Source: Sphyrna mokarran (Eukaryota). Taken from it: a stretch of DNA of 64,000 bases. The notes beneath the pieces were generated by a model. The model made no database searches. It was not told the DNA's origin and saw only the letters and a program-made list of their open reading frames with translations. Shown piece by piece: positions 17,993 to 60,268 of the stretch; positions within the stretch are counted from its first letter, which is position 1; each line of letters opens with the position of its first letter. The position numbers were made by a program, and so were the translations under genes. The DNA lies in NCBI GenBank assembly GCA_024679065.1, contig JAGIQG010000009.1, positions 95,790,001-95,854,000 of the forward strand, in the 5' to 3' direction.

Positions 17993-18056
17993 ATGAGGGA
18001 AGTAGCAGTGATTGGACTGATAGTGCTGGTCCTTCTGTGTGGAGAGGTGTCTGCAG
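17993..18056 (+). CDS. Gene A exon 1, leader MREVAVIGLIVLVLLCGEVSA
   Basis: ATG in a GCACCATGA context; GTGAGT donor. Confidence 0.88.
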
Positions 18057-23052: not shown

Positions 23053-23143
23053 TAAGCTGGTGTTTGAGGATCTGATGGGTTTAGCTTGTGTTTGGGGTCT
23101 GATGGGTTTAGCTGCTGTTTGGGGTTCTGATGGGTTTAGGTGG
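23053..23143. repeat. 3' UTR minisatellite of gene A (3-4 degenerate copies)
   Basis: GATGGGTTTAGCT..TGTTTGGGG units. Confidence 0.8.
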
Positions 23144-23169
23144 TGGTGTGTGGATGGAATGTTCAATCG

Positions 23170-29280: not shown

Positions 29281-31142
29281 AAAAAGTCCATTGGAATGTG
29301 TGCTCAAGTCAAGATCTCCCATTCCCAAGCACACTGGCTTGGCAAATCACAAATATCTTTGAAATATCAAAGCCTTTCTACAAATTGGTAGCTGCAGGCG
29401 AGTTTCCAATTCTTGTAGTTGTTGGAAATATTGTTACACTTTGCAGTATTGGACACAACTGTTATCTGTGCGGATGTGTGAGAGTTTATAAAACAGAAAA
29501 AGATCATCCTGCTCAGAGCTGAATGGGTTAATTTAAATTAAAACATGTTTGGTGAAGGAATTTATGTCTCTGTGATTTCAGAGACTGAGTTACAATGTTC
29601 TTAGAGTAATGGCGGTTTTAGCTGAACAAAAATACTTCTTCAAGTCTTGTGGATTCACCAATTCAAACTGAATATTTCCGAATAAAGATCTTGGAACACA
29701 ATGGATTAGAAGATAAATTCTTAATTGTTCCCCAGGGTGACTTCTATGAAGATTTTAAACACAAGAATAATCCACCAACAATCACCTTAAATTCAACTCC
29801 TTATTTCGAAATTGCACTGTCAAAATTGAAGAAACGACTCCACTCTGACAGATGTGGATTTGTATCTGAATTAGAAATCCACATGTTTCACCCGTTTCAA
29901 TAGAGTTTCATTGTTGCGGTAACAAGTTTTCAGTTTCAAAACTTTTAAATTGTTCTCCCCCTTTAGACTTAACCATTTTCAGGAAAACACATCAGAATTG
30001 GAGCCGGTCTGAAGGAACAGCAATGCAGAGCATTCACACAGCCTTTCCTCATTCACTAACAGGACATTTACACACACACATCTGGACACACAATTCTTTC
30101 TCACATCACTTCAAGTTTCACTCTGGATCTTTTCAACATTAAAAAGGTGTCCTTTAAAGGAGATAAAATAAATTCCATCACATTTTCTTTCTTCACTAAT
30201 GTCTGTTATTGAAGTGAAGGGAAAACCGCGTTTCACAAATAACAGTAAAGGAAACATTGAAGATTGTTCCATTGAAACAGCAGAGGGCGGAGTTTCTAAC
30301 AGAGTGTGTTTCAATTCCAAAACTTCTACAAACTTCTTCAACTTAAAAAGTAAAACTTGTTTTATTTTCTCAATTCTGGGGACACAATTGAAATTCCTTG
30401 CACTCTAATTTCTATTTCACTGCAATTTTCCTGTTTATTTTCTCCCACCCGGAAGCCGAGGATCCGCTTCAGTCCCGGTTTCGATTTGAAATTTATTTTA
30501 ACTTTCTCTCTTTCCGACAACAGTCAATCCGGCAGCTCATTTTCCATCATCTCAATGGCATTGCCCCAGTCTGTCTCCCCGCGGTTACAATCCGGACAAC
30601 AGCATCAAACCGCCTCAGTTCACCCAGAATTTTCCAACTTCAACACGGAATTCACAAAACATCAACAACCTTCCCCTCCCCTCCTCCTCTTTTCAGTTGT
30701 TGTCTGAATAAACTCAACCATCGATCAACCATCGAATCCTTGCAGTACAGAAGGAGGACATTCGGCCCCTCGAGTCTGCACCGAATAGCATTTTGCCCAA
30801 GAGCTGAGTTTCTCTCCACCAAATTCCCAGCCTCTGATCCACTCTTGCGGCGACAATGTTTCATTTCTTTTTTCGAACCTGCTTCTGATATTCCACCAAC
30901 CAGACATCAACAGCCCATTCCTGAAAAACAGCGAGATCCATTTCTTCATCCTGATTCAATAATCTAATCTTTGGTCTCACATCTCCGTGATCTCTCACTA
31001 TTTGTTTCTTCCTGTCGACTTTCTCCCAATCATTCCAATTTCCCTGCTCTGATCCAAGCATCCAATCTGCAAATACTGTTTCTTTATGCACCATTTTACC
31101 TTTCATTTTAACTCTTGACTGACCAGCTATTCACTTTTTCAA

Positions 31143-34100
31143 ATCAAGTACAGCACAGAGCTCATATAGTGGGAGAGACAGTATCAGTACAGGACACAGT
31201 TCACACACTGAGAGGGAGAGTATCAATACAGGACACAGTGCACATAATGGGAGAGACAGTATCAGTACAGGACACAGTTCACATACTGAGAGGGACAGTA
31301 TCAGTACAGGACACAGTTCACACACTGAGAGGGACAGTATCAGTACAGGACACAGCGCACATACTGGGAGAGACAGTATCAGTACAGGACACAGCGCACA
31401 CACTGAGAGGGACAGTATCAGTACAGGACACAGCTCACACACTGAGAGGGACAGTATCAGTACAGGACACAGCTCAAACACTGAGAGGGACAGTATCAGT
31501 ACAGGACACAGTTCACATACTGAGAGAGACAGTATCAGTACAGGACACAGCTCACACACTGAGAGGGGCAGTATCAGTACAGGACACAGTTCACACACTG
31601 AGAGGGACAGTATCAGTACAGGACACAGTTCACATACTGAGAGAGACAGTATCAGTACAGGACACAGCACACACACTGAGAGGGACAGTATCAGTACAGG
31701 ACACAGTTCACACACTGAGAGGGACAGTATCAGTACAGGACACAGTTCACACACTGAGAGAGACAGTATTAGCGTAGGACACAGTTCACACACTGAGAGG
31801 GACAGTATCAGTTCAGGACACAGCTCACACACTGAGAGGGACAGTATTAGCGTAGGACACAGTTCACACACTGAGAGGACAGTATCAGTACAGGACACAG
31901 TTCATACACTCAGAGGGACAGTATCAGTACAAGACACAGCTCACACACTGAGAGGGACAGTATCAGTACAGGACACAATTCACACACTGAGAGGGACAGT
32001 ATCAGCGTACGACACAGTTCACATACTGAGAGGGACAGTATCAGTACAAGACACAGTTCACATACTGAGAGGGACAGTATCAGCGTAGGACACAGTTCAC
32101 ATACTGAGAGGGACAGTATCAGTACAAGACACAATTCACATACTGAGAGGGACAGTATCACCGTAGGACACAGTTCACATACTGAGAGGGACAGTATCAG
32201 TACAGGACACAGCTCACACACTGAGAGGGACAGTATCAGTACAGGACACAGTTCACACACTGAGAGGGACAGTATCAGTACAGGACATAGCTCACACACT
32301 GAGAGGGACGGTATCAGTACAGGACACAGTTCACACACTGAGAGGGACAGTATCAGTACAGGACACAGTTCACATACCGAGAGGGACAGTATCAGTACAG
32401 GACACAGTTCACACACTGAGAGGGACAGTGTCAGTACAGGACACAGCTCACACACTGAGAGGGACAGTATCAGTACAGGACACAGTTCACACACTGAGAG
32501 GGACAGTATCAGTACAGGCACAGTTCACACACTGAGAGGGACAGTATCAGCGTAGGACACAGTTCACACACTGAGAGGGACAGTATCAGTACAGGACACA
32601 GCTCACACACCGAGAGGGACAGTATCAGTACAGAACACAGTTCACACACTGAGAGAGACCGTATCGGTACAGGAGACAGTTCACATACTGAGAGGGACAG
32701 TATCAGTACAAGACACAGTTCACATACTGAGAGGGACAGTATCAGCGTAGGACACAGTTCACATACTGAGAGGGACAGTATCAGTACAGGACACAGCTCA
32801 CACACTGAGAGGGACAGTATCAGTACAGGACACAGCTCACACACTGAGAGAGACAGTATCAGTACAGGACACAGTTCACATACTGAGAGAGACAGTATCA
32901 GTACAGGACACAGCTCACACCCTGAGAGAGACAGTGTGAGTACAGGACACAGCTCACACACTGAGAGGGACAGTATCAGTACAGGACACAGTTCACACAC
33001 TGAGAGGGACAGTATCAGTACAGGACACAGCTCAGAAACTGAGAGAGACAGTATCAGTACAGGACACAGCTCAGACACTGAGAGGGACAGTATCGATACA
33101 GGACACAGCTCACACACTGAGAGGGACAGTATCAGTACAGGACCTAGCTCACACACTGAGAGGGACAGTATCAGTACAGGACACAGTTCATATACTGAGA
33201 GGGACAGTATCAGCGTAGGACACAGTTCACATACTGAGAGAGACAGTATCATTGCAGGACACAGCTCACACACTAAGAGAGACAGTATGAGTACAGGACA
33301 CAGCTCACAGACTGAGAGGGACAGTATCATTACAAGACACAGTTCACACACTGAGTGGGACAATATTAGTACAGGACACAGTTCACACACTGAGAGAGAG
33401 TATCAGCGTAGGACACAGTTCACAGACTGAGGGACAGTATCAGTACAGGACACAGCTCACACACTGAGAGGGACAGTATCAGTACGGGACACAGCTCACA
33501 CAGAGGGCTGTATCAGTACAGGACACAGTTCACACACTGAGAGGGACAGCATCAGTACAGGACACAGTTCACACAGTGAGAGGGGCAGTATCAGTACAGG
33601 ACACAATTCACACACTGAGAGAGACCGTATTAGCGTAGGACACAGTTCACACACTGAGACGGACAGTATCAGTACAGGACACAGCTCACACACTGAGAGA
33701 GACGGTATCAGTACAGGACACAGCTCAGACACTGAGAGGGACAGTATCAGTACAGGACACAGTTCACACACTTAGAGGGACAGTATCAGTACAGGACACA
33801 GTTCACACACTGAGAGGGACAGTATCAGTACAGGACACAGTTCACATACTGAGAGGGACAGTATCAGCGTAGGACACAGTTCACATACTGAGAGGGTCAA
33901 TATCAGTACAAGACACAGTTCACATACGGAGAGAGACAGTATCAGTACAGGACATTGTTCACATACTGAGAGGGACAGCATCAGTACAGGACACAGTTCA
34001 CACAGTGAGAGGGGCAGTATCAGTACAGGACACAGTTCACACACTGAGAGAGACCGTATTAGCGTAGGACACAGTTCACACACTGAGACGGACAGTATCA

Positions 34101-37100
34101 GTACAGGACACAGCTCACACACTGAGAGAGACGGTATCAGTACAGGACACAGCTCAGACACTGAGAGGGACAGTATCAGTACAGGACACAGTTCACACAC
34201 TGAGAGGGACAGTATCAGTACAGGACACAGTTCACACACTGAGAGGGACAGTATCAGTACAGGACACAGTTCACATACTGAGAGGGACAGTATCAGCGTA
34301 GGACACAGTTCACATACTGAGAGGGTCAATATCAGTACAAGACACAGTTCACATACGGAGAGAGACAGTATCAGTACAGGACATTGTTCACATACTGAGA
34401 GAGACAGTATCAGTACAGGACACAGTTCACACACTGAGAGGGACAGTATCAGCGTGGGACAAAGTTCACACACTGAGAGGGACAATATCAGTACAGGACA
34501 CAGCTCACACACTGAGAGGGACAGTATCAGTACGGGACACAGCTCACACGCTGAGAGGGACTGTATCAGTACAGGACACAGTTCACACACTGAGAGAGAC
34601 CGTATCAGCGTAGGACACAGTTCACACAGTGAGAGGGACAGTATCAGTACAGGACACAATTCACACACTGAGAGAGACCGTATCAGCGTAGGACACAGTT
34701 CACACACTGAGACGGACAGTATCAGTACAGGACACAGCTCACACACTGAGAGGGACAGTATCAGTACAGGACACAGCTCACACACTGAGAGGGACAGTAT
34801 CAGTTCATGACACAGTTCACACACTGACAGGGACAGTATCAGTAGAGGACACAGTTCACACACTGATAGGGACAGTATCAGTGTAGAACACAGTTCACTT
34901 ACTGAGAGGGACAGTATCAGTACAGGACACAGTTCACACACTGAGAGGGACAGTATCAGTACAGGGCACAGCTCACACACTGAAAGGGACAGTATCAGTA
35001 AAGGACACAGTTCACATACTGAGAGGGACAGTATCAGTACAGGACACAGCTCCACACTGAGGGGGACAGTATCACTACAGGACACAGCTCACACACTGAG
35101 GGGGACAGTATCAGTACAGGACACAGCTCACACAGTGAAAGGGACAGTATCAGTACAGGAGACAGCTCACACACTGAGAGGGACAGTATCAGTAGAGAAC
35201 ACAGTTCACACACTGAGAGAGACAGTATCAGTACAGGACGCAGCTCACACACTGAGAGGGACAGTATCAGTACAGGACACAGCTCCACACTGAGGGGGAC
35301 AGTATCAGTACAGGACACAGCTCACACACTGAGAGGGACAGTATCAGTACAGGACACAGCTCACACAGTGAAAGGGACAGTATCAGTACAGGACACAGTT
35401 CACACACTGAGAGAGACAGTATCAGTACAGGACACAGCTCACACACTGAGAGGGACAGTATCAGTACAGGACACAGTTCACACACTGAGAGAGACAGTAT
35501 CAGTTCAGGACACAGTTCACACACTGAGTGGGACAGTATCAGTACAGGACACATTTCACACACTGAGAGGGACAGTATCAGTACAGGACACAGTTCACAC
35601 ACTGAGAGGGACAGTATAGTACAGGACACAGTTCACACACTAGGGGACAGTATCAGTACAGGACACAGTTCACACACTGAGAGGGACAGTATCAGTACAG
35701 GACACAGCTCACACACTGAGGGGGACAGTATCAGTACAGGACACAGTTCACACACTGAGAGGGACAGTATCAGTACAGGACACAGTTCACACACTGAGAG
35801 GGACAGTATCAGTAGAGGACACAGTTCACACACTGAGAGAGACAGTATCAGTACAGGACACAGCTCACACACTGAGAGGGACAGTATCAGTACAGGACAC
35901 AGTTCACACACTGAGGGGACAGTATCAGTACAGGACACAGCTCACACACTGAGGGGGACAGTATCAGTACAGGACACAGCTCACACAGTGAAAGGGACAG
36001 TATCAGTACAGGACACAGCTCACACACTGAGAGGGACAGTATCAGTACAGGACACAGTTCACACACTGAGAGAGACAGTATCAGTACAGGACGCAGCTCA
36101 CACACTGAGAGGGACAGTATCAGTACAGGACACAGTTCACACACTGAGAGAGACAGTATCAGTTCAGGACACAGCTCACACACTGAGTGGGACAGTATCA
36201 GTACAGGACACATTTCACACACTGAGAGGGACAGTATCAGTACAGGACACAGCTCAGACACTGAGAGGGACAGTATTAGTACAGGACACAGTTCACACAC
36301 TGATAGGGACAGTATCAGTAGAGGACACAGTTCACACACTGATAGGGACTGTATCAGTGTAGAACACAGTTCACATACTGAGAGGGACAGTATCAGCGTA
36401 GGAGACAGTTCACATACTGAGAGGGACAGTATCAGTACAGGACACAGTTCACACACTGAGAGGGCAGTATCAGTACAGGACACAGTTCACACACTGAGAG
36501 AGACAGTATCAGCGTAGGACACAGTTCACACACTGAGAGGGACAGTATCAGTACAGGACACAGTTCACACACTGAGAGGGACAGTATCAGTACAGGACGC
36601 AGTTCACACACTGAGAGAGACAGTATCAGCGTAGGACACCGTTCACACACTGAGAGGGACAGTATCAGTACAGGACACAGCTCACACACTGAGAGGGACA
36701 GTATCAGTACACGACACAGTTCACACACTGAGAGGGACAGTATCAGTACAGGACACAATTCACGCACTGAGAGGGACAGTATCAGTACAGGACACAGTTC
36801 ACACACTGAGAGGGACAGTATCAGTACAGGACACAGTTCACACACTGAGAGGTACAGTATCAGTACAGGACACAGTTCCCACACTGAGAGAGACAGTATC
36901 AGCGTAGGACACAGTTCACACACTGAGAGGGACAGTATCAGTATAGGACACAGCTTACACACTGTGAGAGACAGTATCAGTACAGGACACAGCTCACACA
37001 CTGAGAGAGACAGTATCAGTACACGACACAGTTCACATACTGAGAGAGACAGAATCAGTACAGGACACAGTTCACATACTGAGAGAGACAGTATCAGTAC

Positions 37101-40100
37101 AGGACACAGCTCACACCCTGAGAGAGACAGTGTGAGTACAGGACACAGCTCACACACTGAGAGGGACAGTATCAGTACAGGACACAGTTCACACACTGAG
37201 AGGGACAGTATCAGTACAGGACACAGCTCAGAAACTGAGAGAGACAGTATCAGTACAGGACACAGCTCAGACACTGAGAGGGACAGTATCGATACAGGAC
37301 ACAGCTCACACACTGAGAGGGACAGTATCAGTACAGGACCTAGCTCACACACTGAGAGGGACATTATCAGTACAGGACACAGGTCACACACTGAGAGGGA
37401 CAGTATCAGTACAGGACACAGTTCATATACTGAGAGGGACAGTATCAGCGTAGGACACAGTTCACATACTGAGAGAGACAGTATCATTACAGGACACATC
37501 TCACACACTAAGAGAGACAGTATGAGTACAGGACACAGCTCACAGACTGAGAGGGACAGTATCAGTACAAGACACAGTTCACACACTGAGAGGGACAGTA
37601 TTAGTACAGGACACAGTTCACACACTGATAGAGAGTATCAGCGTAGGACACAGTTCACAGACTGAGAGGGACAGTATCAGTACAGGACACAGCTCAAACA
37701 CTGAGAGGGACAGTATCAGTACGGGACACAGCTCACACACTGAGAGGGACTGTATCAGTACAGGACACAGTTCACACACTGAGAGGGACAGTATCAGTAC
37801 AGGACACAGTTCACACAGTGAGAGGGACAGTATCAGTACAGGACACAGTTCACACACTGAGAGAGACCGTATTGCGTAGGACACAGTTCACACACTGAAG
37901 GACAGTATCAGTACAGGACACAGTTCACACACTGAGAGGGACAGTATCAGTACAGGACACAGTTCACGCACTGAGAGGGACAGTATCAGTACAGGACACA
38001 GTTCACACACTGAGAGGGACAGTATCAGTACAGGACACAGTTCACACACTGAGAGGGACAGTATCAGCGTGGGACAAAGTTCACACACTGAGAGGGACAG
38101 TATCAGTACAGGACACAGCTCACACACTGAGAGGGACAGTATCAGTACGGGACACAGCTCACACGCTGAGAGGGACTGTATCAGTACAGGACACAGTTCA
38201 CACACTGAGAGAGACCGTATCAGCGTAGGACACAGTTCACACAGTGAGTGGGACAGTATCAGTACAGGACACAGTTCACACACTGAGAGAGACCGTATCA
38301 GCGTAGGACACAGTTCACACACTGAGACGGACAGTATCAGTACAGGACACAGCTCACACACTGAGAAGGACAGTATCAGTACAGGATACAGCTCACACAC
38401 TGAGAGGGACAGTATCAGTTCATGACACAGTTCACATACTGACAGGGACAGTATCAGTAGAGGACACAGTTCACACACTGATAGGGACAGTATCAGTGTA
38501 GAACACAGTTCACTTACTGAGAGGGACAGTATCAGTACAGGACACAGTTCACACACTGAGAGGGACAGTATCAGTACAGGGCACAGCTCACACACTGAAA
38601 GGGACAGTATCAGTAAAGGACACAGTTCACATACTGAGAGGGACAGTATCAGTACAGGACACAGCTCCACACTGAGGGGGACAGTATCACTACAGGACAC
38701 AGCTCACACACTGAGGGGGACAGTATCAGTACAGGACACAGCTCACAAAGTGAAAGGGACAGTATCAGTACAGGACACAGCTCACACACTGAGAGGGACA
38801 GTATCAGTAGAGAACACAGTTCACACACTGAGAGAGACAGTTTCAGTACAGGACGCAGCTCACACACTGAGAGGGACAGTATCAGTACAGGACACAGTTC
38901 ACACACTGAGAGAGACAGTATCAGTTCAGGACACAGCTCACACACTGAGAGGGACAGTATCAGTACAGGACACATTTCACAAACTGAGAGGGACAGTATC
39001 AATACAGGACACAGCTCAGACACTCAGAGGGCCAGTATTAGTACAGGACACAGTTCACACACTGATAGGGACAGTATCAGTAGAGGACACAGTTCACACA
39101 CTGATAGGGACAGTATCAGTGTAGAACACAGTTCACATACTGAGAGGGACAGTATGAGTACAGGACACAGTTCACATACTGAGAGGGACAGTATCAGCGT
39201 AGGACACAGTTCACATACTGAGAGGGACAGTATCAGTACAGGACACAGTTCACACACTGAGAGGGACAGTATCGATACAGGACACAGCTCACACACTGAG
39301 AGGGACAGTATCAGTACAGGACCTAGCTCACACACTGAGAGGGACAGTATCAGTACAGGACACAGGTCACACACTGAGAGGGACAGTATCAGTACAGGAC
39401 ACAGTTCATATACTGAGAGGGACTGTATCAGCGTAGGACACAGTTCACATACTGAGAGAGACAGTATCATTACAGGACACAGCTCACACACTAAGAGAGA
39501 CAGTATGAGTACAGGACACAGCTCACAGACTGAGAGGGACAGTATCAGTACAAGACACAGTTCACACACTGAGAGGGACAGTATTAGTACAGGACACAGT
39601 TCACACACTGAGAGAGAGTATCAGCGTAGGACACAGTTCACAGACTGAGAGGGACAGTATCAGTACAGGACACAGCTCACACACTGAGAGGGACAGCATC
39701 AGTACGGGACACAGCTCACACACTGAGAGGGACTGTATCAGTACAGGACACAGTTCACACACTGAGAGGGACAGTATCAGTACAGGACACAGTTCACACA
39801 CTGAGAGGGACAGTATCAGTACAGGACACAGTTCACACACTGAGAGGGACAGTATCAGTACAGGACACAGTTCACATACTGAGAGGGACAGTATCAGCGT
39901 AGGACACAGTTCACATACTGTGAGGGTCAGTATCAGTGCAGGACACAGTTCACATACTGAGAGAGACAGTATCAGTACAGGACACAGTTCACACACTGAG
40001 AGGGACAGTATCAGTACAGGACACAGCTCACACACTGAGAGGGACAGCATCAGTACGGGACACAGCTCACACACTGAGAGGGACAGTATCAGTACAGGAC

Positions 40101-43100
40101 ACAGCTCACACACTGAGAGGGACAGTATCAGTACAGGACACAGTTCACACACTGAGAGGGACAGTATCAGTACAGGACACAGTTCACACACTGAGAGGGA
40201 CAGTATCAGTACAGGACACAGTTCACATACTGAGAGGGACAGTATCAGCGTAGGACACAGTTCACATACTGAGAGGGTCAGTATCAGTACAAGACACAGT
40301 TCACATACGGAGAGAGACAGTATCAGTACAGGACATTGTTCACATACTGAGAGAGACAGTATCAGTACAGGACACAGTTCACACACTGAGAGGGACAGTA
40401 TCAGTACAGGACACAGTTCACACACTGAGAGAGACAGTATCAGCGTGGGACAAAGTTCACACACTGAGAGGGACAGTATCAGTACAGGACACAGCTCACA
40501 CACTGAGAGGGACTGTATCAGTACAGGACACAGTTCACACACTGAGAGAGACCGTATCAGCGTAGGACACAGTTCACACAGTGAGAGGGACAGTATCAGT
40601 ACAGGACACAGTTCACACACTGAGAGAGACCGTATCAGCGTAGGACACAGTTCACACACTGAGACGGACAGTATCAGTACAGGACACAGCTCACACACTG
40701 AGAGGGACAGTATCAGTACAGGACACAGCTCACACACTGAGAGGGACAGTATCAGTTCATGACACAGTTCACACACTGACAGGGACAGTATCAGTAGAGG
40801 ACACAGTTCACACACTGATAGGGACAGTATCAGTGTAGAACACAGTTCACTTACTGAGAGGGACAGTATCAGTACAGGACACAGTTCACACACTGAGAGG
40901 GACAGTATCAGTACAGGGCACAGCTCACACACTGAAAGGGACAGTATCAGTAAAGGACACAGTTCACATACTGAGAGGGACAGTATCAGTACAGGACACA
41001 GCTCCACACTGAGGGGGACAGTATCAGTACAGGACACAGCTCACACACTGAGGGGGACAGTATCAGTACAGGACACAGCTCACACAGTGAAAGGGACAGT
41101 ATCAGTACAGGACACAGTTCACACACTGAGAGGGACAGTATCAGTAGAGAACACAGTTCACACACTGAGAGAGACAGTATCAGTACAGGACGCAGCTCAC
41201 ACACTGAGAGGGACAGTATCAGTACAGGACACAGTTCACACACTGAGAGGGACAGTATCAGTTCAGGACACAGCTCACACACTGAGAGGGACAGTATCAG
41301 TACAGGACACATTTCACACACTGTGAGGGACAGTATCAGTACAGGACACAGCTCAGACACTGAGAGGGACAGTATCAGTACAGGACACAGTTCACACACT
41401 GAGAGGGACAGTATCAGTAGAGGACACAGTTCACACACTGAGAGGACAGTATCAGGTGACAAGTTCACACTGAGAGGGGTTGGGGTGGGTTGTACAGACA
41501 CAGTTCACACACTGAGAGAGACCGTATCAGCGTAGGACACAGTTCACACACTGAGAGGGACAGTATCAGTACAGGACACAGTTCACACACTGAGAGGGAC
41601 AGTATCAGTACAGGACACAGCTCACACACTGAGAGGGACAGTATCAGTTCATGACACAGTTCACAACTGAAGGGACAGTTAGTAGAGGAAAGTCACACAC
41701 TGATAGGGACAGTATCAGTGTAGAACACAGTTCACATACTGAGAGGGACAGTATCAGTACAGGACACAGTTCACATACTGAGAGGGACAGTATCAGTACA
41801 GGGCACAGTCACACACTGAAGGGCGTATCAGTAAGGACACAGTTCACATACTGAGAGGGACGTATCAGCTCCACACTGAGGGGGACAGTATCATACAGGA
41901 CACAGCTCACACACTGAGGGGGACAGTATCAGTACAGGACACAGCTCACAAGTGAAAGGGACAGTATCAGTACAGGACACAGCTCACACACTGAGAGGGA
42001 CAGTATCAGTAGAGAACACAGTTCACACACTGAGAGAGACAGTATCAGTACAGGACGCAGTCACACACTGAGAGGGGTTGTGGGTCACACTGAGGGACAG
42101 TATCAGTTCAGGACACAGCTCCACACTGAGGGACAGTATCAGTACAGGACACATTTCACACTTTGAGGGAAGTATCAGTACAGGACACAGCTCAGACACT
42201 GAGGGCAGTAGAGAAGGACCAGTTCACACACGAAGGGACAGTATCAGTAGAGGACACAGTTCACACACTGATGGACAGTATCAGTGTAGAACACAGTTCA
42301 CAATGAGAGGGACAGTATCAGTACAGGACACAGTTCACATACTGAGAGGGACAGTATCAGCGTAGGACACAGTTCACATACTGAGAGGGACAGTATCAGT
42401 ACAGGACACAGTTCACACACTGAGAGGGGCAGTATCAGTACAGGACACAGTTCACACACTGAGAGGGACAGTATCAGTACAGGACGCAGTTCACACACTG
42501 AGAGAGACAGTATCAGCGTAGGACACAGTTCACACACTGAGAGGGACAGTATCAGTACAGGACACAGCTCACACACTGAGAGGGACAGTATCAGTACACG
42601 ACACAGTTCACACACTGAGAGGGACAGTATTAGTACAGGACACAGTTCACGCACTGAGAGGGATAGTATCAGTACAGGACACAGTTCACACACAGAGGGA
42701 CAGTATCAGTACAGGACACAGTTCACACACTGAGAGGGACAGTATCAGTACAGGACACAGTTCACACACTGAGAGAGACAGTATCAGTACAGGACACAGT
42801 TCACACACTGAGAGGGACAGTATCAGTACAGGACACAGCTTACACACTGTGAGAGACAGTATCAGTACAGGACACAGCTCACACACTGAGAGGGACAGTA
42901 TCAGTACACGACACAGTTCACACACTGAGAGGGACAGTATCAGTACACGACACAGTTCACACACTGAGAGGGACAGTATCAGCGTTGCACACAGTTCACA
43001 TAGTGAGCGGGACAGTATCAGCGTAGGACACAGTTCACATACTGAGAGGGACAGTATCAGTACAAGACACAGTTCACACACTGAGAGAGATAGTATCAGT

Positions 43101-45348
43101 ACAGGACGCAGCTCACACACTGAGAGGGACAGTATCAGTACAGGACACAGTTCACACACTGAGAGAGACAGTCTCAGTTCAGGACACAGCTCACACACTG
43201 AGAGGGACAGTATCAGTACAGGACACAGTTCACACACTGAGAGGGATAGTATCAGTACAGGACACAGCTCAGACACTGCGAGGGACAGTATTAGTACAGG
43301 ACACAGCTCACACACTGAGTTGGACAGTATCAGTACAGGACATAGCTCACACACTGAGAGGGACAGTATCAGTACAGGACACAGTTCACACACTGAGAGG
43401 GACAGTATCAGTATAGGACACAGCTCACATACTGAGAGGGACAGTATCAGCGTAGGACAGTGTTCACAGACTGAGAGGGACAGTATCAGCGTAGGACACA
43501 GCTCACACACTGAGAGGGACAGTATCAGTACTGGACACAGCTCACATACTGAGAGGGACAGTATCAGTACAGGACACAGCTCACACACTGAGAGGGACAG
43601 TATCAGTACAGGACACAGCTCACACACTGAGAGGGACAGTATCAGTACAGGACACAGCTCACACACTGAGAGGGACAGTATCAGTACAGGACACAGTTCA
43701 CACACTGAGAGGGACAGTATCAGTATAGGAACAGCTCACATACTGAGAGGGACAGTATCAGCGTAGGACAGTGTTCACAGACTGAGAGGGACAGTATCAG
43801 CGGCACAGTCACACACTGAGAGGGACAGTATCAGTACAGGACACAGCTCACATACTGAGAGGGACAGTATCAGTACAGGACACAGCTCACACACTGAGAG
43901 GGACAGTATCAGTACAGGACACAGCTCACACACTGAGAGGGACAGTATCAGTACAGGACACAGTTCACACACTGAGAGGGACAGTATCAGTACAGGACAC
44001 AGTTCACACACTGAGAGAGACAGTATCAGTACAGGACACAGTTCACACACTGAGAGAGACAGTATCAGTACAGGACACAGCTCACACACTGAGAGGGACA
44101 GTATCAGTACAGGACACAGTTCACACACTGAGAGTGACAGTATCAGTACAGGACACAGTTCACACACTGAGAGGGACAGTATCAGCGTAGGACACAGCTC
44201 ACACACTGAGAGGGACAGTGTCAGTACAGGACACAGCTCACATACTGAGAGGGACAGTATCAGTACAGGACACAGCTCACACACTGAGAGGGACAGTATC
44301 AGTACAGGACACAGCTCACACACTGAGAGGGACAGTATCAGTACAGGACACAGCTCACACACTGAGAGGGACAGTATCAGTACAGGACACAGTTCACACA
44401 CTGAGAGGGACAGTATCAGTACAGGACACAGTTCACACACTGAGAGAGACAGTATCAGTACAGGACACAGTTCACACACTGAGAGAGACAGTATCTGTAC
44501 AGGACACAGCTCACACACTGAGAGGGACAGTATCAGTACAGAACACAGTTCACACACTGTGAGTGACAGTATCAGTACAGGACACAGTTCACACACTGAG
44601 AGGGACAGTATCAGCGTAGGACACAGCTCACACACTGAGAGGGACAGTGTCAGTACAGGACACAGCTCACATACTGAGAGGGACAGTATCAGTACAGGCC
44701 ACAGCTCACACACTGAGAGGGACAGTATCAGTACAGGCCACAGCTCACACACTGAGAGGGACAGTATCAGTACAGGACACAGCTCACACACTGAGAGGGA
44801 CAGTATCAGTACAGGACACAGTTCACACACTGAGAGGGACCGTATCAGTACAGGACACAGTTCACACACTGAGAGGGACAGTATCATTACAGGACACAGT
44901 TCACACACTGAGAGAGACAGTATCAGTACAGGACACAGTTCACACACTGAGAGAGACAGTATCTGTACAGGACACAGCTCACACATTGAGAGGGACAGTA
45001 TCAGTACAGGGCACAGTTCACACACTGTGAGTGACAGTATCAGTACAGGACACAGTTCACACACTGAGAGGGACAGTATCAGTACAGGACACAGTTCACA
45101 CGCTGAGAGAGACAGTATCAGTACAGGACACAGTTCACACACTGAGAGAGACAGTATCAGTACAGGACACAGTTCACACACTGAGAGAGACAGTATCTGT
45201 ACAGGACACAGTTCACACACTGAGAGAAGCAGTATCAGTACAGGATACAGTTCACACACTGAGACGGACAGTATCAGTACAGGACACAGCTCAGACACTG
45301 AGAGAGACAGTATCAGTACAGGACACAGCTCAGACACTGAGAGGGACA
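31143..45348. repeat. 39-bp satellite array 2 (about 360 monomers, both ends present)
   Basis: Same monomer and orientation as array 1; degenerate first units at about 31143; ends at GAGGGACAATG. Confidence 0.98.
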
Positions 45349-45359
45349 ATGTCACACAG

Positions 45360-45411
45360 GTACTGATAGTGCTGGTCCCTCTGTGTGCAGTGATTTCTGT
45401 GGGTGGTGAGT
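45360..45411 (+). pseudogene. Orphan MHC class I leader exon (VLIVLVPLCAVISVG plus a phase-1 GTGAGT donor)
   Basis: 45362-45387 is 25/26 identical to the gene A leader (ACTGATAGTGCTGGTCCyTCTGTGTG); donor at 45406; the ATG at 45349 is out of frame. Confidence 0.7.
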
Positions 45412-45844
45412 TTTGACTTGGAAGTGCCAGGTTTACATATTAATCCTAAGTAATAAAGAACATGAGAGCTAACAGAAGGAATAATCCCTTCATCCTCGTG
45501 TTCCTGTCCCATCATCCAATACAATCATAGTTGATTTTCTACCTCATCTCCATTTTCATTCCTACTCTCTGTAAAACGCCTTTCACTGAGACACCACAAA
45601 TCTCTCTATCTTCAATATATTCAGTAATGATGCATCCACAATACGCTGGATAGAGAATCCCAAAGACTCACAATCCTTTCAGTGAAGAAATTTCTCCTCA
45701 TGTTAACGAATTCACCTCTTACCTTGTGGCTTTACCCTCATGTTTTATTGCTCACCAACAGAAAGAATATTTCAGTATCAGCCCTAAGAATCACTATCAG
45801 AATAGAATCATTCAGTGAGGTTACCTGAAAATTACCAATTCCCA

Positions 45845-46105
45845 GCTTGGCTCACTGTGCGTGTGGAGTTTGCACATTTTCCTCGTATCTGCATGGGTTT
45901 TCTCTGGGTATTCCAGTTACCTCCCACAATCCAAAGATGTGCAGGTTAGTTTGATTGGTCACACTAAATTGACCATAGGTGCATCGGTTAGAAGATTAGG
46001 GGGTAAAATATGTACGGATATGGGGATAGGGCCTGGGTGGGAATGCGGTTGTTGCAAACTTGGTGGGCCGAAGGGCCTCCTTCTGTACTGTAGACTTTCT
46101 ATGAC
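45845..46105 (+). mobile_element. HE1-like V-SINE (5'-truncated)
   Basis: GTGTGGAGTTTGCACATTTTCC core; GGGCCGAAGGGCCT...TTCTATGA tail. Confidence 0.75.
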
Positions 46106-46344
46106 CTAATTTTTCTAAACTCCATTGAATAAATCCCAACCTGCTCAACTTTCTCTCATTAGAAAATCCCGATGTTTCCAAGATTTAGAGAAAGAAACGT
46201 CCTCTGTACGTCTGGCTGGAAAACATCTACACAGGTGTGTTGTTAATAATTGCCTTTACCTTTGTGACAAGAATTCTTTCTCCTGTTCTCCAATCTCTTT
46301 GCAACATCAAGGTACCATTTGCTTTCCTGATTGCATATTGAACG

Positions 46345-46668
46345 GTGGGCGCTTTGGCACAGTGGTTAGCATTGCTGCCCCCCACAGTGCCAGGGACCAG
46401 GGTTCAACTCTAGCCAAGGGTGACTATCTGTGTGGAGTTTTCACATTCTCCCCATGTCCGTGTGGGTTTCGTCCGGGTGATCCAGTTTCGTCCCACTGGT
46501 TAGGATTGGCCATTCTAAATTGCTTCTTAGTGTCCCAAGATGTATTGGTTTGGGGAATTAGCCATGTAAATATGTGGGGTTACAGGTATAGGGATTGGGT
46601 AAAATGCTCTGTTGGAGAATCAGTGGGCTGAATGATCTCTTTCTGCACTGCAGAGATTCTGATTCTAT
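46345..46668 (+). mobile_element. HE1-like V-SINE
   Basis: GGCACAGTGGTTAGCATTGCTG head; GATTCT tail. Confidence 0.78.
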
Positions 46669-47067
46669 CTGCAAGAATTTGTTTGTTTCTTGTGGAGTAC
46701 GCATGGGTCTCTAATTTTTAATAAGTGTTCTACTTTTCAATCCATGTCAACAAAGTTTAATAGCACTACTTCCCGCCCCCCTCCCCCCACACCAACCCTT
46801 CCCCCCAACCATCAGCAACTCTGTTCTATGCCGCGTATGAGCAGTTCTAGTGATTTCTAATCATGTGATATATGAAGCAACATTTCAGCTCAAAAACAGA
46901 AGTGCTGTGCAATGTGCGTTCACTGGGTCTACAGATAAATCTGTCTCACTTCATTACATCTGAATTAATAAGTAAATAAATGTGTCCTGTTCTCAGAAAT
47001 ATCCTTACACATAACATTCATTTCAAAAAGCATTTCTGTCTGAAACCTGCAGATGTTACAATAGTTA

Positions 47068-47299
47068 TGATATGGAGATGCCAGCGTTGGACTGGGGTAA
47101 ATACAACAAGAATTCTTACAACACCAGCTTGAAGTCCAACAGGTTTATTTGTTAGTAAAACGCACAAGCTTTTGGAATGCTGTATCTTCATCAGGTGAGT
47201 GGACACAACTTTGTCAGGTGAGTCTCCACTGACCTGACAATGGAACCGCATTCTGAAAGCTTGGAGATTTTACTACCAAATAAACCTGTTGGACTTTAG
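47068..47299. mobile_element. Non-autonomous Penelope-derived element with inverted halves and two decayed hammerhead-like motifs
   Basis: GGAGATGCCAGCGTTGGACTGGGG start; AAGTCCAACAGGTTTATTTG and its reverse complement CAAATAAACCTGTTGGACTT. Confidence 0.6.
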
Positions 47300-47545
47300 A
47301 TTCCCAGCTTGGGTCACTGTCTGTGTGAAGTTCTCCCAGTGTCTGCAAGGGTTTCCTCCAGGTGCTCTGGTTTCCTCCTACAGTCCAAAAGACATGCTTA
47401 GTTCGGTGAGGTGTATTGGCCATGCTGAATTCTCCCTCAGTGTACCCGAACAGGCGCCGGAGTGTGGTGACTGTGGGATTTTTACAGTGACTTCATTACA
47501 GTGTTAATATAAGCCCACTTGTGACTAATAAATAAACTTTAACTT
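47300..47545 (+). mobile_element. HE1-like SINE 3' part (homolog of 11255-11533)
   Basis: GCTTGGGTCACTGTCTGTGTG...AATAAATAAACTTT. Confidence 0.7.
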
Positions 47546-47989
47546 CACTTTAGATTAATACTGTGCTTGTTTCCAATATCATCAAGAGAATGAAATTACA
47601 TCTACTGCCTCTTCAATAGAACATCTCTCAGTAAAAAACAGACTTTGCAAGGTTTCCTGAAACCAATACTATATTTTATAACATGTATCTCAAAGCCACA
47701 GCTTACTCTGACTCAGTCTCTCACTCCACCCTCTTGTTATTACTTGCTTGTACAGTATAACAAAATGAGATGTTATTACTGAAGGATGGACATGCTTCAA
47801 TTTAAAGACCTTCTGGCAGGCTGGGTAATCAGAGCAATGTCTGTGTGGGCCAGTATGAATGTGCAGAAGACCATATTATGCTGACAGGAGACACAGACCC
47901 CCATTACACTCCATCTGCCATCTTGCAGCCCATTTGCTTAATTTGCCCAAATCTCTTTGCAGCTCTCTAATCCTCCACATAGTTTACAT

Positions 47990-49300
47990 TTCATAGAAAC
48001 TCAGAAAACAGGAACAGGAACAGGCCATTCAGCCCATCAAACCTGCTCTGCCATTCATTATGATCATGGCTGATTTTCCAACTCAATCCAGCCTTTCCAC
48101 ATATTCTTTGATCTGCTTCACCCCAAATGCAATATGTAACTGCTTCTTGAAAATATACGTTTTTTCCCCAACTGCTGCCTGCAATAGTGAATTCCATAGG
48201 CTTACCAATATCTGGATGAAGAAATTTCTCCTCATCTCAGTTCTCAATGGTTTACCTTGCATCCTCAATGACAACCCCTGATTCTGGACTCCTCCATCAT
48301 TGGGAACATCCTTCCTGGATCTACCTTGCAGAGGCCTCTTTGAATTTTATAAGTTTCTGTGCGATCCACCTCATTCTTCTAGACCCCAATGAATACAATC
48401 CTAACAACTTAATCCTTCCTCATTTCCACCTAGCTTTGTAGCTGCTGCAAGTTTAGATACACTACACCCGTCTTCTTGGCCTGAGTCATGAATGTAGATT
48501 GTAAATGGCTGATTGTTCGACCACTGATCCTAGTGACACTCCACTAACCAGAGTTGGCCAATTTGAAAATGGCCCATTTATGCCAAATCAATGTTTTCTG
48601 TCTATTTGACATCTGGATGTAAATTACCCCATTGGGTAGATGCAGCATGAGTTCATGAAGGGCAGGTCATGTTCAACTAATTTGATGGAATTATCTGAGG
48701 ACACCACATGCGCAGTGAGCAATGGGGAATCTGTGGATGTGGTGGATCTTGATTTCCAGAATGCATTTGACAAGGTGCCACAAAAAAGGCTGTTGCATAA
48801 GGTAAAGGTGCACAACGTTATGAATAATGTATTGGCATGGATAGAGAATTGGTTAACTATTGAAAATAAAGAATGGGGGTAAATGGCCTCAAAATGAGAT
48901 GGAACAGATTTAGGACCGAGTTGAAGAGGAACTTCTTCATCCAAAAGGTTGTGAATATGTGGAATTCTCTGTTCAGTGAAGCAAGTTGCAGTTACCTCAT
49001 TGAATTTTAAGACAAGGATAGATAAATTTTTGAACAGTAAAGGAATTAAGAGTTCTGGTTCCAAATGAGAAAACACTGGAAAATCTCAGTAGGTCTGGCA
49101 GCATCTGTAATGAGAGAAAAAAGCGTTGATATTTCAAGTTCAGATGAGCCTTTGTCAAAGCCCTTTGTCAAAGAGTTGTGGTGATCACGTCGGTAAGTGG
49201 AGCTGAGTCCAGAAAAACAGCAGCCATAATCTTATTGAATGGCAGAGCAGGCTGGCGGGGCCAGGTGACCTATTCCTGCTCTTTGTTCTTATGTTCTTAT
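47990..49300. mobile_element. Mixed-orientation CR1 fragments
   Basis: RRNFFIQILVSLWNSL on the minus strand; QHEFMKGRSCSTNL...DFQNAFDKVP on the plus strand. Confidence 0.75.
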
Positions 49301-49843
49301 TAACTAATCCACTACTCATGCAAAAATATTACCCCCAACTCTCCAACACTGACAATGGACAATAAAGGTTCTCTATGTAGAGATGCACTTTAGAGGATTA
49401 GGGTTTTTAAACTAAAGAATAAAGTTTGAGGGTTATATCAACTTGTTTTTCATTCTAGAGAGTTTAGAATTTTGAGGGGAGATCTTTTGATAATGTTAAA
49501 ATGATTCCGTAATCTGGAATCCACATTCAGTTGCTCCACCAAAAATTGTGAACAACTGGAGCTTTAAAATGTAAGAGTGATAGATTTTTATTGGGTAATG
49601 ATATCTAAGGATATGGGTTATTGTCAGAAACTGGGGTTCAGACCAGTGGTGATCTAATTGAATGGTTGGCTCAAATGTCCTTCCCTCTGTCCCAGTATCA
49701 AACTCCTTTCAGCTTATTCACTCTGGTCAGTGATGAAGTCAGAATCATAGAATAAGCCCATTCAGCCCACTATAAGACAAAGCACCTTCACCCTGGCTCT
49801 AACAGTGTAGCCTGACGTGTTTACCACGGCTAATCCCCTGATG

Positions 49844-50801
49844 ATGTAGAGATGCCAGCGTTGGACTGGGGTAAACTTAGTAAGAGGTCTTGCAATACCA
49901 ATTTTAAATCCAACCGATTTATTTGATAGGAAACCTGCTAGCTTTTGGCATTTGTGCCTTCGTCAGGTGAATGAGGTGTTCTGGTCTCCAAAAGCACACA
50001 TATCAGCACAGACAGTTTACAGATTGCTGATTAGAATCGAATCCTTACACCTAACCTACTATTCAAGTCTTAAAGTGGCTAACAATCTGAATGGAAGGAA
50101 CACTGAGCACTGAGGTTAGAGAGATGTGTATTGTTTCCAGACAGCACAGTGAGGTTTTTTGCTAACCTAGGCAAGTCATGGGGGTTACAGATAGTGTGGC
50201 ATGAAGCCAAGATCCCTGTTAAGACCGTCCTCATGTGTGCAGAACTTGGCTATCAGTCTCTGCTCAGCGGCTCTGTGCTGTCGTGTGTCGTGAAGGCCCC
50301 CTTGAAGAACATTTACCCGAAGGTCGGAGGCCGAATGCCCATGACCGCTGAAGTGTTCACCCACAGGAAGGGAACTATTTTGCCTGGTGGTTGTCGAGCG
50401 ATGTTCATTCATCCGCTGTCGTAGTGTTTGCATGGTCTCCCCAATGCACCATGCTTCGGGACATCCTTTCTTGCAACGTATTAGGTAGATGGCCAACGTT
50501 GCCCGGGTTACCAAAAACCTCACTTACTGTGCTGTCTGGAGACAATACACATCTCTCTAACCTCAGTGCTCAGTGTTCCTTCCACTCACATTGTTAGCCA
50601 CTTTAAGACTTGAATAGCAGGTTAGGTGTAAGGATTCACATTCTAATCAGCAATCTGTAAACTGTCTGTGCTGATATACGTGCTTTTGGAGACCAGAACA
50701 CCTCATTCGCCTGACGAAGACACAAATGCCGAAAGCTAGCAGGTTTACTATCAAATAAATCGGTTTGATTTAAAATCGTTGTTGCCAGACCTCTTACTGA
50801 G
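49844..50801 (-). mobile_element. Penelope-like element: GIY-YIG endonuclease fragment between about 285-bp inverted arms, with a 13-bp target-site duplication
   Basis: ORF 50185-50523 reads IYLIRC...WCIGET.QTLRQRMNEHR...VGEHF...EQRLI...GLN; arms 49875-50160 and 50513-50802; flanks TAATCCCCTGATG and TAATCCCCCGATG. Confidence 0.88.
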
Positions 50802-51065
50802 TAATCCCCCGATGCACATGAATTGGGACACTGAAGAGCAATTTGCTAATCCACGTATTTTTGGAGTGTGGGAGGAAACTGGGGCACCCAGAAGAAAACC
50901 ACATGGAGAATGTGCAACCTCCACACAGACAGTGACCCAAGGCTAGAACTAAACCCGAGTCCTTGGCACTTGTGAAACAGCAGGGCTAACGTGAGATAAG
51001 CAACAATATTTAGCCGATCGGATGATTCTCAACATTGAGGAAGTTCGTCAACCTTTTTGTCTATT

Positions 51066-51140
51066 CTGCCGGAGACTGATGACTCAGTGAATCTCTTTAC
51101 TCTGATTGGACGCAAAATAGGTCTGAACCGGTCAGATTGA
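51066..51140 (+). promoter_or_regulatory. Gene B promoter: X1-X2-like box and Y box
   Basis: CCGGAGACTGATGACTCA at 51069-51086 and CTGATTGG at 51102-51109. Confidence 0.68.
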
Positions 51141-51237
51141 GGCTCACAGTGTGAACAGGGAAAAAAAAGTTGAGAAAATGGCCTTTCTTTGAAAAAGAGT
51201 TTCCTCCAAATGTTTCCCCAAAATAAGGGAAGCATCA

Positions 51238-51286
51238 ATGATTGGACTGATAGTGCTGGTCCTTCTGTATGGAGAGGTGTCTGCAG
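51238..51286 (+). CDS. Gene B exon 1, leader MIGLIVLVLLYGEVSA
   Basis: ATG, hydrophobic core, GTGAGT donor. Confidence 0.92.
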
Positions 51287-54200
51287 GTGAGTGATGGGGT
51301 TTGAGAGGGGCAATGCCAGGCTGGGTGGAGGTTTTGGTCTCGGTTTGGAATCAGTGTTTTGGGGTTCATGCCCTGATCTGTGTGTGTGAGGGTGTTGGTG
51401 TTTTTCGGGTGTATATCATGAATTCTCTCTCTCTCTATTTCAGCCTCTCACTCTCTCCGGTATTTCCTCACGGGAATGACTCCGATCCCGGGTCTCCCGG
51501 AGTTTGTGGGTGTCGGTTATGTGGACGGTGTCCAGTTTGTTGTGTACGACAGTGATCGGGTGGAGCTGATCCCCCGGGAGCAGTGGATGGTGGAGAGCGA
51601 GGGTCCGGCAGCCTGGGCGAGGAAGAAGATCCTCGCACGGGAGCAGGAGATGCACGCCAAACCTACTATTCCGCTCCTCATGTCCCGGAGCAACCAGACA
51701 GGAGGTGAGCGCTCACTCTCCCAACACCCGGGGATCCAGGCGGGAACGAGGAGAAACCCAGAGTGGATCAGGAACCGGGAGCCAGAGGCTGATTGGCTGC
51801 GATTGGAGATGTGACAGGAAATGTGATTGGCTGTGAATGTGTGGAGGGATTGAGGCTGGCTCTGATTGGCTGTGTGAGTGGGGGCGGGGGGAGGTGGCCG
51901 TCTAGTTAATGTTGATTGGCCATTTGGATGTGATTGCCCCGTGAGACTGGTTCTGATTGGCTGTGTGTGAGTGGGACTGTCTCTGATTGGCTGTTTGTGT
52001 TTCTGATCCACAGGGATCCATGTCTACCAGCTCATGACTGGCTGTGACCTGAGGGATGATGGAACCACGAGTGGATTCACCCAGTACGGGTGGGACGGAC
52101 GTGATTTGATCAGCTTCAACAAGAATCACATGGTGTGGGTGACCCCAGTGCCCTGGGGGGAGATCATCAAAAACAGCTGGGACCAGCAGACTGATGACAT
52201 TCAGGATTGGAAATACTACCTGGAGGTGGAGTGTATCGAGTGGCTGAGAAAATACCTGGAGTACGGACAGGGAGAATTGAGAGTCGGTGAGTGAGGGGGG
52301 AGTGAGAGTCGGTGAAGGGGGTGATGCCGGGACTCTCTATCTCGAGGTTCCTGTACTGACTCCTCTTTCTTTCTCTCTCAGTTGCCCCCGTCGTGTCCTT
52401 TACCCGTCTGGGTGATTCTAACCGGCTGTCCTGTGCCGTCACCGGGTTTTACCCTCAAGCCATCGAGGTGACCGTATGCAGAGACGGAGTGGTGATTGGT
52501 GAGACTCTGTCCACTGGGATCCTACCCAATCACGACAGCACCTACCAGATCCGGAAGTGGATCGAGTTTGATCCAGAGGACCGGGCCGAGTATTCCTGTC
52601 GGGTGGAACACAGCGGGATGAAGGAGACACTGGTGGTGATTTATGGTAAGACTGTTTCTCACTGTTAGAGAGGACCCAGCCTCAGACCAGGATCACAGGA
52701 GGGAGGATCAGTACTGAACTGTCAGCCCAGGACAGCCTGAGGCCTGGGTATAGAGAGAGGGAAATAAATATTAATCTTCAATGTGTTATATAATATGGCA
52801 CCACCTTTAGAGGGAAATAATTGTGTGTCTAATTTGATATAAAACATACTCCACTGTATCTTGCTGTATTATAGTGCAACAGGATCCAGTATGTTGTGGA
52901 ATATTACAGCATGGATACGGCCTGGTGTATCTTGGGATATTACAGCATGACAGGGAAATAACTGGGTTACAGGACCCATTGTGTTATTGGATATTACAGT
53001 GGGACAGGCTTCTGTGTAAAATGAGATCTTTTAGTTGGTCAGGGCCCAGTATATCCTGGGATATTCCAGTAGGGACAAAACCAAGTGTATCCTCGGATGT
53101 TACTGTGCACAAGGACCTGGTTTACTTGGGATATTAGAGTATACAGAGCCCAATGTGTCCAGGGATATTTTTGTACAACCATTTTAGAATGTTATTGTGG
53201 CACAGGTAGTAGTGGATCCTGGGATTACAATATGACAGAACCCAAAATATCATGGGATATTAATGTATATTAATGAGTATCTGGGATATTAGTGTAACAG
53301 AGCCTGGTGTATCCTGGGATGTTACAGTATAACACAGCCTAGTGTATCTGGGATATTATAGTGGAACATGATATAGTGTATCAGGAGGTATTACAATAGC
53401 ACAGAGTCTGACGAATCATTGGATATTAGAGTAAGTCTGGATTTGGGGTGTTCTAGAATATTACAGTATGGTGGGGCCCAGTGTATCTGGGATATTGCAG
53501 CCTGACAGGACCTAATGTATCCTGGGATACTGCACTAATATGGAATGCAGTGTATCCTGGCATATTGTAATAGGTCAAATCCTAATGTATTCTGGAATAT
53601 TGCAGCCTTACAGGGTCTGGTGTATCCTGGCATGTTACTGTATGTGATGACACAGAGTATCATAGGATATTACAGGAAGTTAGGGCCCAATGTCCTTGGG
53701 ATATTAGAGAGTAGACAGGGCCTGTTTTATCCTGGCATATTACAGAAGGTAGGGCCTGGTGTGCCTGGGGTATCAAGGCCCAGGATATCCTAGGAACAAT
53801 ACTTTTTACTGTGTACCAATACGTGACAATAATAAATCAAATATTACAGTACAACAGGACCCAATGCATTCTGGAAACTTACTTCAGTCAGATTAAGATC
53901 AGTATTCAGAAAAATAATGGAATTCCTTCTATTGTAGACAATTCATGAAAATCATTGCGTGTATGCCCCTTGTTAGACAACAAGGTGGACCAAAGCACCT
54001 GTCAGATAAAAACAAGTACATCAATTTCATCGTCTATTTACACACTTCCCAGGGACTCTCAAGGCTCATGATCCCTATGTTAAATCAGTTTTCTATATCC
54101 CTCCATTCCCATTCTGTTCATGTGTCCATCTAAATATCTCTTAAATAAGTCCAGAGTGCCTGCATCCGCCATTTTACTTGGCAGAACATTCCATACCCCC

Positions 54201-59809: not shown

Positions 59810-60268
59810 AGTTTAGTTGGTGTTTGGGGCTGTGATGGGTTTAGCTAGTGTTTGTTCATTTAATGGGTTAGCTGGTGTTTGGGGGCTCTGATGGGTTTAG
59901 CTGGTGTTTGGGGGCTCTGATGGGTTTAGCTGGTGTTTGGGGGCTCTGATGGGTTTAGCTGGTGTTTGGGGGCTCTGATGGGTTTAGCTGGTGTTTGGGG
60001 GCTCTGATGGGTTTAGTTGGTGTTTGGGGGCTCTGATGGGTTTAGCTGGTGTTTGGGGGCTCTGATGGGTTTAGCTGGTGTTTGGGGGCTCTGATGGGTT
60101 TAGCTGGTGTTTGCTGGTGTTTGGGGGCTCTGATGGGTTTAGCTGGTGTTTGGGGGCTCTGATGGGTTTAGTTGGTGTTTGGGGGCTCTGATGGGTTTAG
60201 CTGGTGTTTGGGGGCTCTGATGGGTTTAGCTGGTGTTTGGGGGCTCTGATGGGTTTAGCTGGTGTTTG
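59810..60268. repeat. 29-bp 3' UTR minisatellite of gene B (about 16 copies)
   Basis: GATGGGTTTAGCTGGTGTTTGGGGGCTCT near-perfect tandem units. Confidence 0.95.

Follow-up and report, generated by a model that had tools for sequence, protein, structure and literature searches.

A class I locus with a 39-bp satellite array

The window analysed here, the whole stretch of 64,000 nt of Sphyrna mokarran DNA whose positions are given below, carries two MHC class I genes (gene A and gene B) and, between them, a long tandem array that ends beside a fragment of a class I leader exon. The features of the locus are as follows.

2-8166 (+): end of a sister array of the same 39-bp unit, which measures 17.4 kb and 447.6 copies in the genome and runs into an assembly gap
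17993-18056 (+): exon 1 of gene A, the reference leader, MREVAVIGLIVLVLLCGEVSA
29300-31146 (+): left flank of the duplicated module ("pre-satellite"), with 77-99% identity to other copies by blastn over 354 kb
31147-45348 (+): cluster-private 39-bp tandem array, 365.9 copies with 88% matches, probably amplified from the 5' UTR of a class I exon 1
43767-45404 (+): frame of 546 codons, open from the satellite into the leader relic and without an ATG
45349-45361 (+): junction remnant with an out-of-frame ATG; sister copies have ATA or lack the stretch
45362-45402 (+): class I leader-exon relic, 13 codons plus one base, with the start codon and most of the 5' UTR deleted
45403-45411 (+): decayed inherited donor at 45403 (GTGGTG) and secondary GTGAGT at 45406, both phase 1
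45412-45450 (+): remnant of the start of class I intron 1, by local alignment to gene A intron 1
45451-46355 (+): right flank of the module, repeat-derived and without alpha1, common in whole or part to five other module copies
50999-51286 (+): gene B promoter with the boxes TGATGACTCA and ATTGG, then its intact exon 1 (start codon 51238, MIGLIVLVLLYGEVSA)
51444-51704 (+): gene B alpha1 exon, with a phase-1 acceptor and a 17/21 pyrimidine tract

The satellite of about 14 kb that the initial annotation had placed before the leader is thus borne out. Gene B has an open frame through leader, alpha1, alpha2 and alpha3. Its own exon 1 (51238-51286), which the initial annotation had overlooked, follows a promoter at 50999-51237 and ends in a CAG/GTGAGT donor at 51287, leaving an intron of 157 nt; with this promoter and intact first exon, gene B needs no other. 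Among 39 matches, its alpha1 domain was closest to class I of Mustelus asterias (at most 82%), with horn shark O19480 at 78% and nurse shark O19479 at 67%, while the best match of its alpha2 domain was the shark class I structure 6LUP. In gene A, the usual start codon reads GTG (window 17993-18010), and an in-frame ATG five codons upstream gives a protein beginning MREVAVIG, comparable with the MREAAMIG start of Mustelus proteins.

The 354 kb around the window contain 12 alpha3 exons, 14 copies of a real-type exon 1 and eight arrays of the 39-bp unit. In an alpha1-alpha2 tree of 37 sequences (midpoint root; one homologue skipped and partial genes left out), the cluster genes grouped with O19479, O19480 and the M. 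asterias proteins on the 29-row side of a branch with 100/92 support; the class I genes found elsewhere on this contig (85.8, 89.6 and 93.3 Mb) fell outside that group. We take O19479 and O19480 to be the founding UBA sequences. A thioester-domain (TED) gene lies at 96.36 Mb, 0.5 Mb from the cluster, and a nuclear-receptor domain at 94.29 Mb, 1.3 Mb away on its other side. According to the available part of the account by Verissimo et al. (2023, PMC10751288), elasmobranchs have a multicopy UBA cluster flanked by c4 and rxrb, of which the TED gene and the nuclear-receptor domain are candidate counterparts; as there, class I is multicopy here, with 12 genes at a distance from the contig's other class I loci. 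UBA is described, in the text available of a second study, as an expanded nonclassical family, the identification being credited to Bartl 1997 and given without accessions (PMC12562908). We call the present cluster UBA-like.

The leader at the right end of the array is a decayed fragment

The class I leader match reported at 45362-45387 was upheld, with identity to gene A at 25/26 nt, to gene B at 24/26 and to an inverted class I fragment (8535-8560) at 25/26; over 44 nt, the matches numbered 37, 36 and 37, respectively. A leader pattern was found four times in the window versus 0.00 expected from 100 shuffles. The segment encodes VLIVLVPLCAVISVG, as described, and thus combines homology to class I leaders with a hydrophobic signal core. 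A weak homology to intron 1 runs for about 45 nt past it. The leader had been said to abut the last monomer directly, but its homology begins only 13 nt past that monomer. All of the differences from real leaders that fall in codons are non-synonymous (synonymous to non-synonymous 0:6 and 0:5, that is 5-6 of 5-6), in a stretch that is short.

Four properties of a functional first exon are missing from this segment: a start codon, promoter boxes, the inherited CAG/GTGAGT donor and an alpha1 exon of its own downstream. No methionine occurs in the 546 codons of its open frame, and the adjacent ATG at 45349 is out of frame, as had been stated. The 300 nt upstream contain none of the ATTGG, CCAAT, CRE-like or TATA motifs, boxes of a kind that genes A and B have. 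The GTGAGT annotated as a phase-1 donor at 45406 is indeed present; however, it is a secondary site, since counting codons from the shared anchor places the inherited donor 3 nt upstream at 45403, which reads GTGGTG. Neither tblastn with 40 class I proteins nor blastn with class I exons found an alpha1 remnant in 45417-50998, in agreement with the earlier statement that no alpha1 exon follows. These results support the proposal that the segment is the relic of a class I gene.

The inverted fragment just mentioned (window 8267-8790, minus strand) holds a promoter and exon 1 followed by 95 nt from the start of alpha1. Compared with gene B, identity is 98.9% in alpha1 and about 85% in the upstream DNA. 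The fragment sits on a 4.3-kb piece between two assembly gaps, at 8167-8266 and 12541-12640, and is possibly misplaced or misoriented.

The relic and the array are copied together through the cluster

The initial annotation had wondered whether other arrays also end in leader exons. They do: the junction is present at five of the eight arrays, so that of the window is not unique, while two arrays have lost the relic and one ends in a gap. All eight adjoin the left flank in whole or part. Array sizes, in listed order, are 4.2, 12, 19.7, 2.4, 29.1, 3.5, 447.6 and 365.9 units. We refer to the relic copies as O1 (the window), O2 (95636705), O3 (95664048), O4 (95691198) and O5 (95737128); a degenerate relic pattern matched O1-O4 only in the entire genome.

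All five relic cores keep 13 hydrophobic codons without a stop or frameshift. An in-frame ATG before the leader start is missing from all of them, and two have a methionine inside the leader. The junction ATG is private to O1 (1/5), GTGAGT occurs in 2/5 and the canonical inherited donor in 0/5. O1 and O2, the two with GTGAGT, have identical cores (41/41 nt), as against 140/159 flank positions (Fisher p 0.015 in one of six tests). Three other informative pairs had no excess of core over flank identity, and the p of 0.03 for O1-O5 is uninformative because the O5 flank is unrelated. Contigs from two large sequencing runs of other organisms also bridge the junction, and in counts summed over paralogous contigs other letters dominate there at 45349 (54/98 and 40/75), with other letters at 45351 in 62/98 and 69/75 and at 45406 in 52/65 and 15/23. 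The share of gene B words among the 24 comparison runs was 0.27 at best and 0.20 in the best RNA-like run, so none reached one half. Two of the 18 RNA or RNA-guessed runs and two of the six others were compared over 45300-45870; both of the former gave no coverage at 45340-45639, and one gave low coverage in two satellite bins, which, in contigs of other organisms, carries no weight for or against transcription.

In an exon-1 tree, from which O5 was left out as too short, O1-O4 grouped as a single clade (100/99), with a long branch separating them from the 14 real exon 1s; the relic joined the exon of another lineage weakly, in what was flagged as a long-branch join. The flanks of O1 and O4 are identical at 111/147 positions, whereas the cores of real exon 1s match gene B at 35-40 of 41, which makes the relic old by comparison. 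A partial gene with inactivating losses, repeated together with its flanks among intact genes, is what a fragment pseudogene looks like, and the best reading of these sequences is that the relic represents an old 5'-fragment pseudogene of class I that would have spread with a duplication block.

Several other class I pieces of the cluster are unusual. Spare copies of promoter plus exon 1 lie at C1548:95661376-95661683 (-) and 95588168-95588476 (-), each some 4 kb upstream of a gene already provided with an exon 1; the former keeps an intact ATG and CAG/GTGAGT, which makes it a much stronger candidate than the relic for an alternative first exon, and the latter has lost the GT. The gene at C1548:95632633-95636705 (-) no longer has a promoter or exon 1 and lacks the initial 90 nt of alpha1, and the nearest leader-like sequence is O2, 1.2 kb upstream. 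Another class I gene (C1548:95678769-95683794, -), with a long tree branch, has an alpha1 54% identical to that of gene B, a diverged alpha2 and alpha3 DNA that is 95% identical; it lies downstream of O4, which may once have been its first exon.

Gene A together with the second array (window 12641-45348) has a twin 40.4 kb upstream (C1548:95762302-95798166), 99.3% identical over 18.5 kb. The twin arrays, of at least 17.4 and at least 14.2 kb, are in register, with 599-600 of 600 positions identical in eight of the first nine blocks and 94-97% in the last five. This identity, the shared register and the gaps at both ends of the first copy mean that the pair may be two alleles; it may otherwise be a recent tandem duplication.

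An inert relic leaves room for the array itself to act, as a recombination substrate or chromatin element that alters class I copy number or expression. We consider such a role unlikely, and it would be compatible with our preferred explanation. Each array's right end is rearranged differently, sizes differ 180-fold, and the youngest duplication (the 99.3% pair) includes an array. However, arrays of 2-30 units were duplicated too, so large arrays are not required, and the ends of that youngest duplication fall at assembly gaps, where breakpoints are unplaceable and two alleles were possibly assembled side by side.

The relic is likely not an alternative first exon of gene B

The initial annotation had offered an alternative first exon of gene B as one of two readings. 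In the form considered here, transcripts that begin in or before the array would splice from 45405 to the gene B alpha1 exon, making the relic a minor or cryptic first exon that is non-coding, non-AUG or competing. The phase-compatible GTGAGT and the open frame speak for this possibility, as do the first introns of 3.5-4.7 kb that exist in the cluster and O2, whose core and GTGAGT are the same and which precedes a gene without its own exon 1. Against it, the complete exon 1 of gene B intervenes; the relic is without a promoter motif, an in-frame ATG or a usable acceptor, the AG before it following only 8/21 pyrimidines versus 17/21 at the gene B alpha1 acceptor; and ATG and donor are not kept in the sisters, the donor being missing in three of five copies and mostly missing in the contigs of the two other organisms. 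The claim therefore has little in its favour, and we judge even the cryptic form very unlikely. Given that the next gene owns a complete first exon, the relic, lacking start codon and promoter, is likely inert. Both the ATG (45349) and the GTGAGT (45406), like the open frame, are read as chance by-products.

The leader does continue, as had been claimed, a long stop-free satellite frame. Reshuffled pieces of the array attained its length in 4.2% of 2000 trials, the real frame being longer than the other 95.8%. The minus strand is open for 542 codons, and two of the three plus-strand frames of the consensus unit are open. Upstream of the relic in the four sister copies, open runs extend for only 7-57 codons. 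We considered selection on the frame and set it aside, given the missing ATG, the similar run on the minus strand and the short runs of the sisters; the frame is treated as a by-product of a 39-nt unit with open frames. A search with its last 120 codons against proteins of 211-2000 residues found no annotated satellite-class I fusion, which is weak evidence, and the single match among 3064 candidates was an unrelated bean protein (E 7e-4).

The satellite likely arose in the 5' UTR of the relic

Exact 36-nt and 23-nt satellite patterns matched 128 and 384 times in the 2.77-Gb genome, every time within the 354-kb cluster, although diverged relatives escape patterns of this kind. Arrays at many unlinked loci, as expected of a dispersed or centromeric satellite, are thus not what the exact core matches (384/384 in 354 kb) reveal.

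The most divergent copy, O4, is the least rearranged and contains, in order, a promoter-box remnant, 2.4 repeats, 5' UTR and leader. Class I 5' UTRs align with the roughly 75 nt that separate its 2.4 units from the leader, and a decayed version of a Y-box-like remnant stands just left of the array. O5 has a 20/23 match to the ATTGG box of a real promoter in the same place (p 0.003, one of six comparisons). The 1.1 kb left of the 2.4-unit array had no other notable match in the cluster or in three other class I regions. Since class I sequence flanks the repeat of O4, with the promoter box to its left and the leader to its right, we infer that it grew there.

A whale-shark protein model of the UBA-like clade (P0029) has an extension of 56 residues before the leader, which we read as translated 5' region. 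Searched against the cluster in six frames, this extension had its best match in O4 (C1548:95691392-95691226) as two colinear pieces, one of 11/16 residues covering the left flank and first unit and one of 12/23 covering the last unit and UTR, with an E value of 1.2e-6 compared with 4.4e-4 for the best of 200 shuffles; the comparison is at the protein level, covers about half of the monomer and involves one automatic model marked as low quality. The best single segment scored 32.4 bits versus 31.2 in the shuffles, so the significance rests on the two colinear pieces. In the leader frame, the UTR of O4 scored 48 against the extension and nine real exon 1s scored 4-9, a contrast inflated by frame shifts in their UTRs. 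The whale-shark 5' region accordingly has one copy of the motif, a part of the unit in the same register.

The monomer motif ACAGCTC, with a background of 8e-5 per position, also occurs 76 and 67 nt before the ATG in two of three class I genes of other lineages. It is absent from the 150 nt upstream of all 14 real exon 1s of the cluster, so an origin in the UTR requires that these have lost it. Taken together, the sequence comparisons suggest that the satellite likely grew from the relic's own 5' UTR rather than invading it.

A fold-back origin, in which the monomer would be an inverted copy of the leader exon that was amplified to leave satellite and leader head to head, appears highly improbable. 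Most of the monomer does align when the relic and real leaders are reverse-complemented (p 0.004-0.18 in 12 tests of 1000 shuffles each), and real leaders are among the top of 25,478 windows scanned. Other CA/GA-rich windows score higher, however, the similarity is missing in O4 (p 0.42-0.99), and there is none of the flank continuity that the forward-strand origin has. The remaining proposal of the initial annotation, that an unrelated satellite inserted into or spread over a class I 5' region whose gene was then deleted, can draw on the lack of recognisable class I sequence left of the array in the window copy and of the motif in the 14 real exon 1s, but is scarcely credible: the 2.77 Gb contain no exact core match beyond the cluster, the 2.4-unit repeat is bordered left and right by class I sequence, between promoter-box remnant and remaining 5' UTR, and the whale-shark 5' region has part of the unit in register.

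Tandem repeats of other units accompany class I genes on this contig as well. A minisatellite with a 28-29 bp unit lies in class I 3' regions (window 13590-13800, 23051-23145 and 59811-60268), and arrays of 38 bp and 30 bp surround the class I gene at 85.79 Mb (C1548:85792447-85806615).

A proposed history of the module

Our preferred explanation, which we hold with good though not full confidence, is that the relic is a shark class I 5' remnant present at five places and likely non-functional, and that the satellite is an amplified 39-bp piece of its own 5' UTR. An old UBA-like class I gene would have lost everything past the start of intron 1, with its start codon and donor decaying; the decay is observed, and the order is the one we infer. 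A motif about 70-75 nt upstream of the start codon would then have become a short tandem repeat, judging from the 2.4-unit copy. The module of flank, repeat, relic and flank would have been copied with neighbouring genes in block duplications, which have left the eight arrays and 12 genes observed. In the lineage of O1, the alignment suggests that deletions of the promoter box, to the left of the repeat, and of about 75 nt of UTR, to its right, brought it up against the leader. Finally, the repeat would have grown to the hundreds of units seen, presumably by slippage and unequal crossing-over, an established route of repeat expansion.

The relic itself is ordinary debris of the birth and death of genes in an MHC class I cluster. 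It is less common that a source can be proposed, to the position in a gene's 5' UTR, for a satellite of 14-17 kb, and paralogous modules with 2.4 to 448 units make a compact case for satellite birth. The module of relic and repeat could also mark the order in which the shark UBA-like cluster was duplicated. A correlation of array length with class I copy number or expression, if there is one, would bear on the diversification of nonclassical class I in sharks. More speculatively, an ancient repeat-prone motif of the class I 5' UTR may have given rise to variable tandem repeats more than once (in horn shark and in the present cluster, with 1-448 units in one locus), and large arrays, with or without splicing of the relic into gene B, may help to set nonclassical class I copy number or expression; we regard this combined idea as distinctly unlikely.

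Comparison with known systems

We found no literature account of the repeat or the relic, in a coverage that mostly leaves out subscription papers, including the primary ones of the UBA era. The available text of the elasmobranch UBA account (PMC10751288) covers gene order; exon-1 relics and repeats are the feature added here. The primate MHC-V, as far as the accessible part of its description goes (PMC12674619), is, like the shark relic, an old 5' fragment that trees place outside the intact genes and that block duplication, in that case of the alpha block, has interspersed among them. MHC-V keeps exons 1-3 in the same description, whereas the shark relic keeps only part of exon 1 and has a repeat of 2-448 units.

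The characiform satellite CharSat01-52 is reported to form small clusters in most genomes and to have been amplified in one (PMC8210747). The likeness lies in one monomer forming both tiny and large arrays. Unlike that described for CharSat01-52, the size series here is found among paralogous modules of one locus, without spread to other loci, and the 5' UTR of a gene can be proposed as its source.

A parallel in position comes from three horn-shark protein models (P0033, P0048 and P0052), which have a tandem repeat before the class I leader in the same register. The repeat, of 18 residues, stands at the start of the models and continues in frame into the leader; its motif is present in 6, 3 and 4 copies, respectively, and has DTAH in common with one frame of the satellite. 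Compared with the satellite alone, it is not significantly similar (tblastn E 0.19 or worse). The horn-shark repeat differs in that its unit is of 18 codons and in that it belongs to intact genes of another class I lineage.
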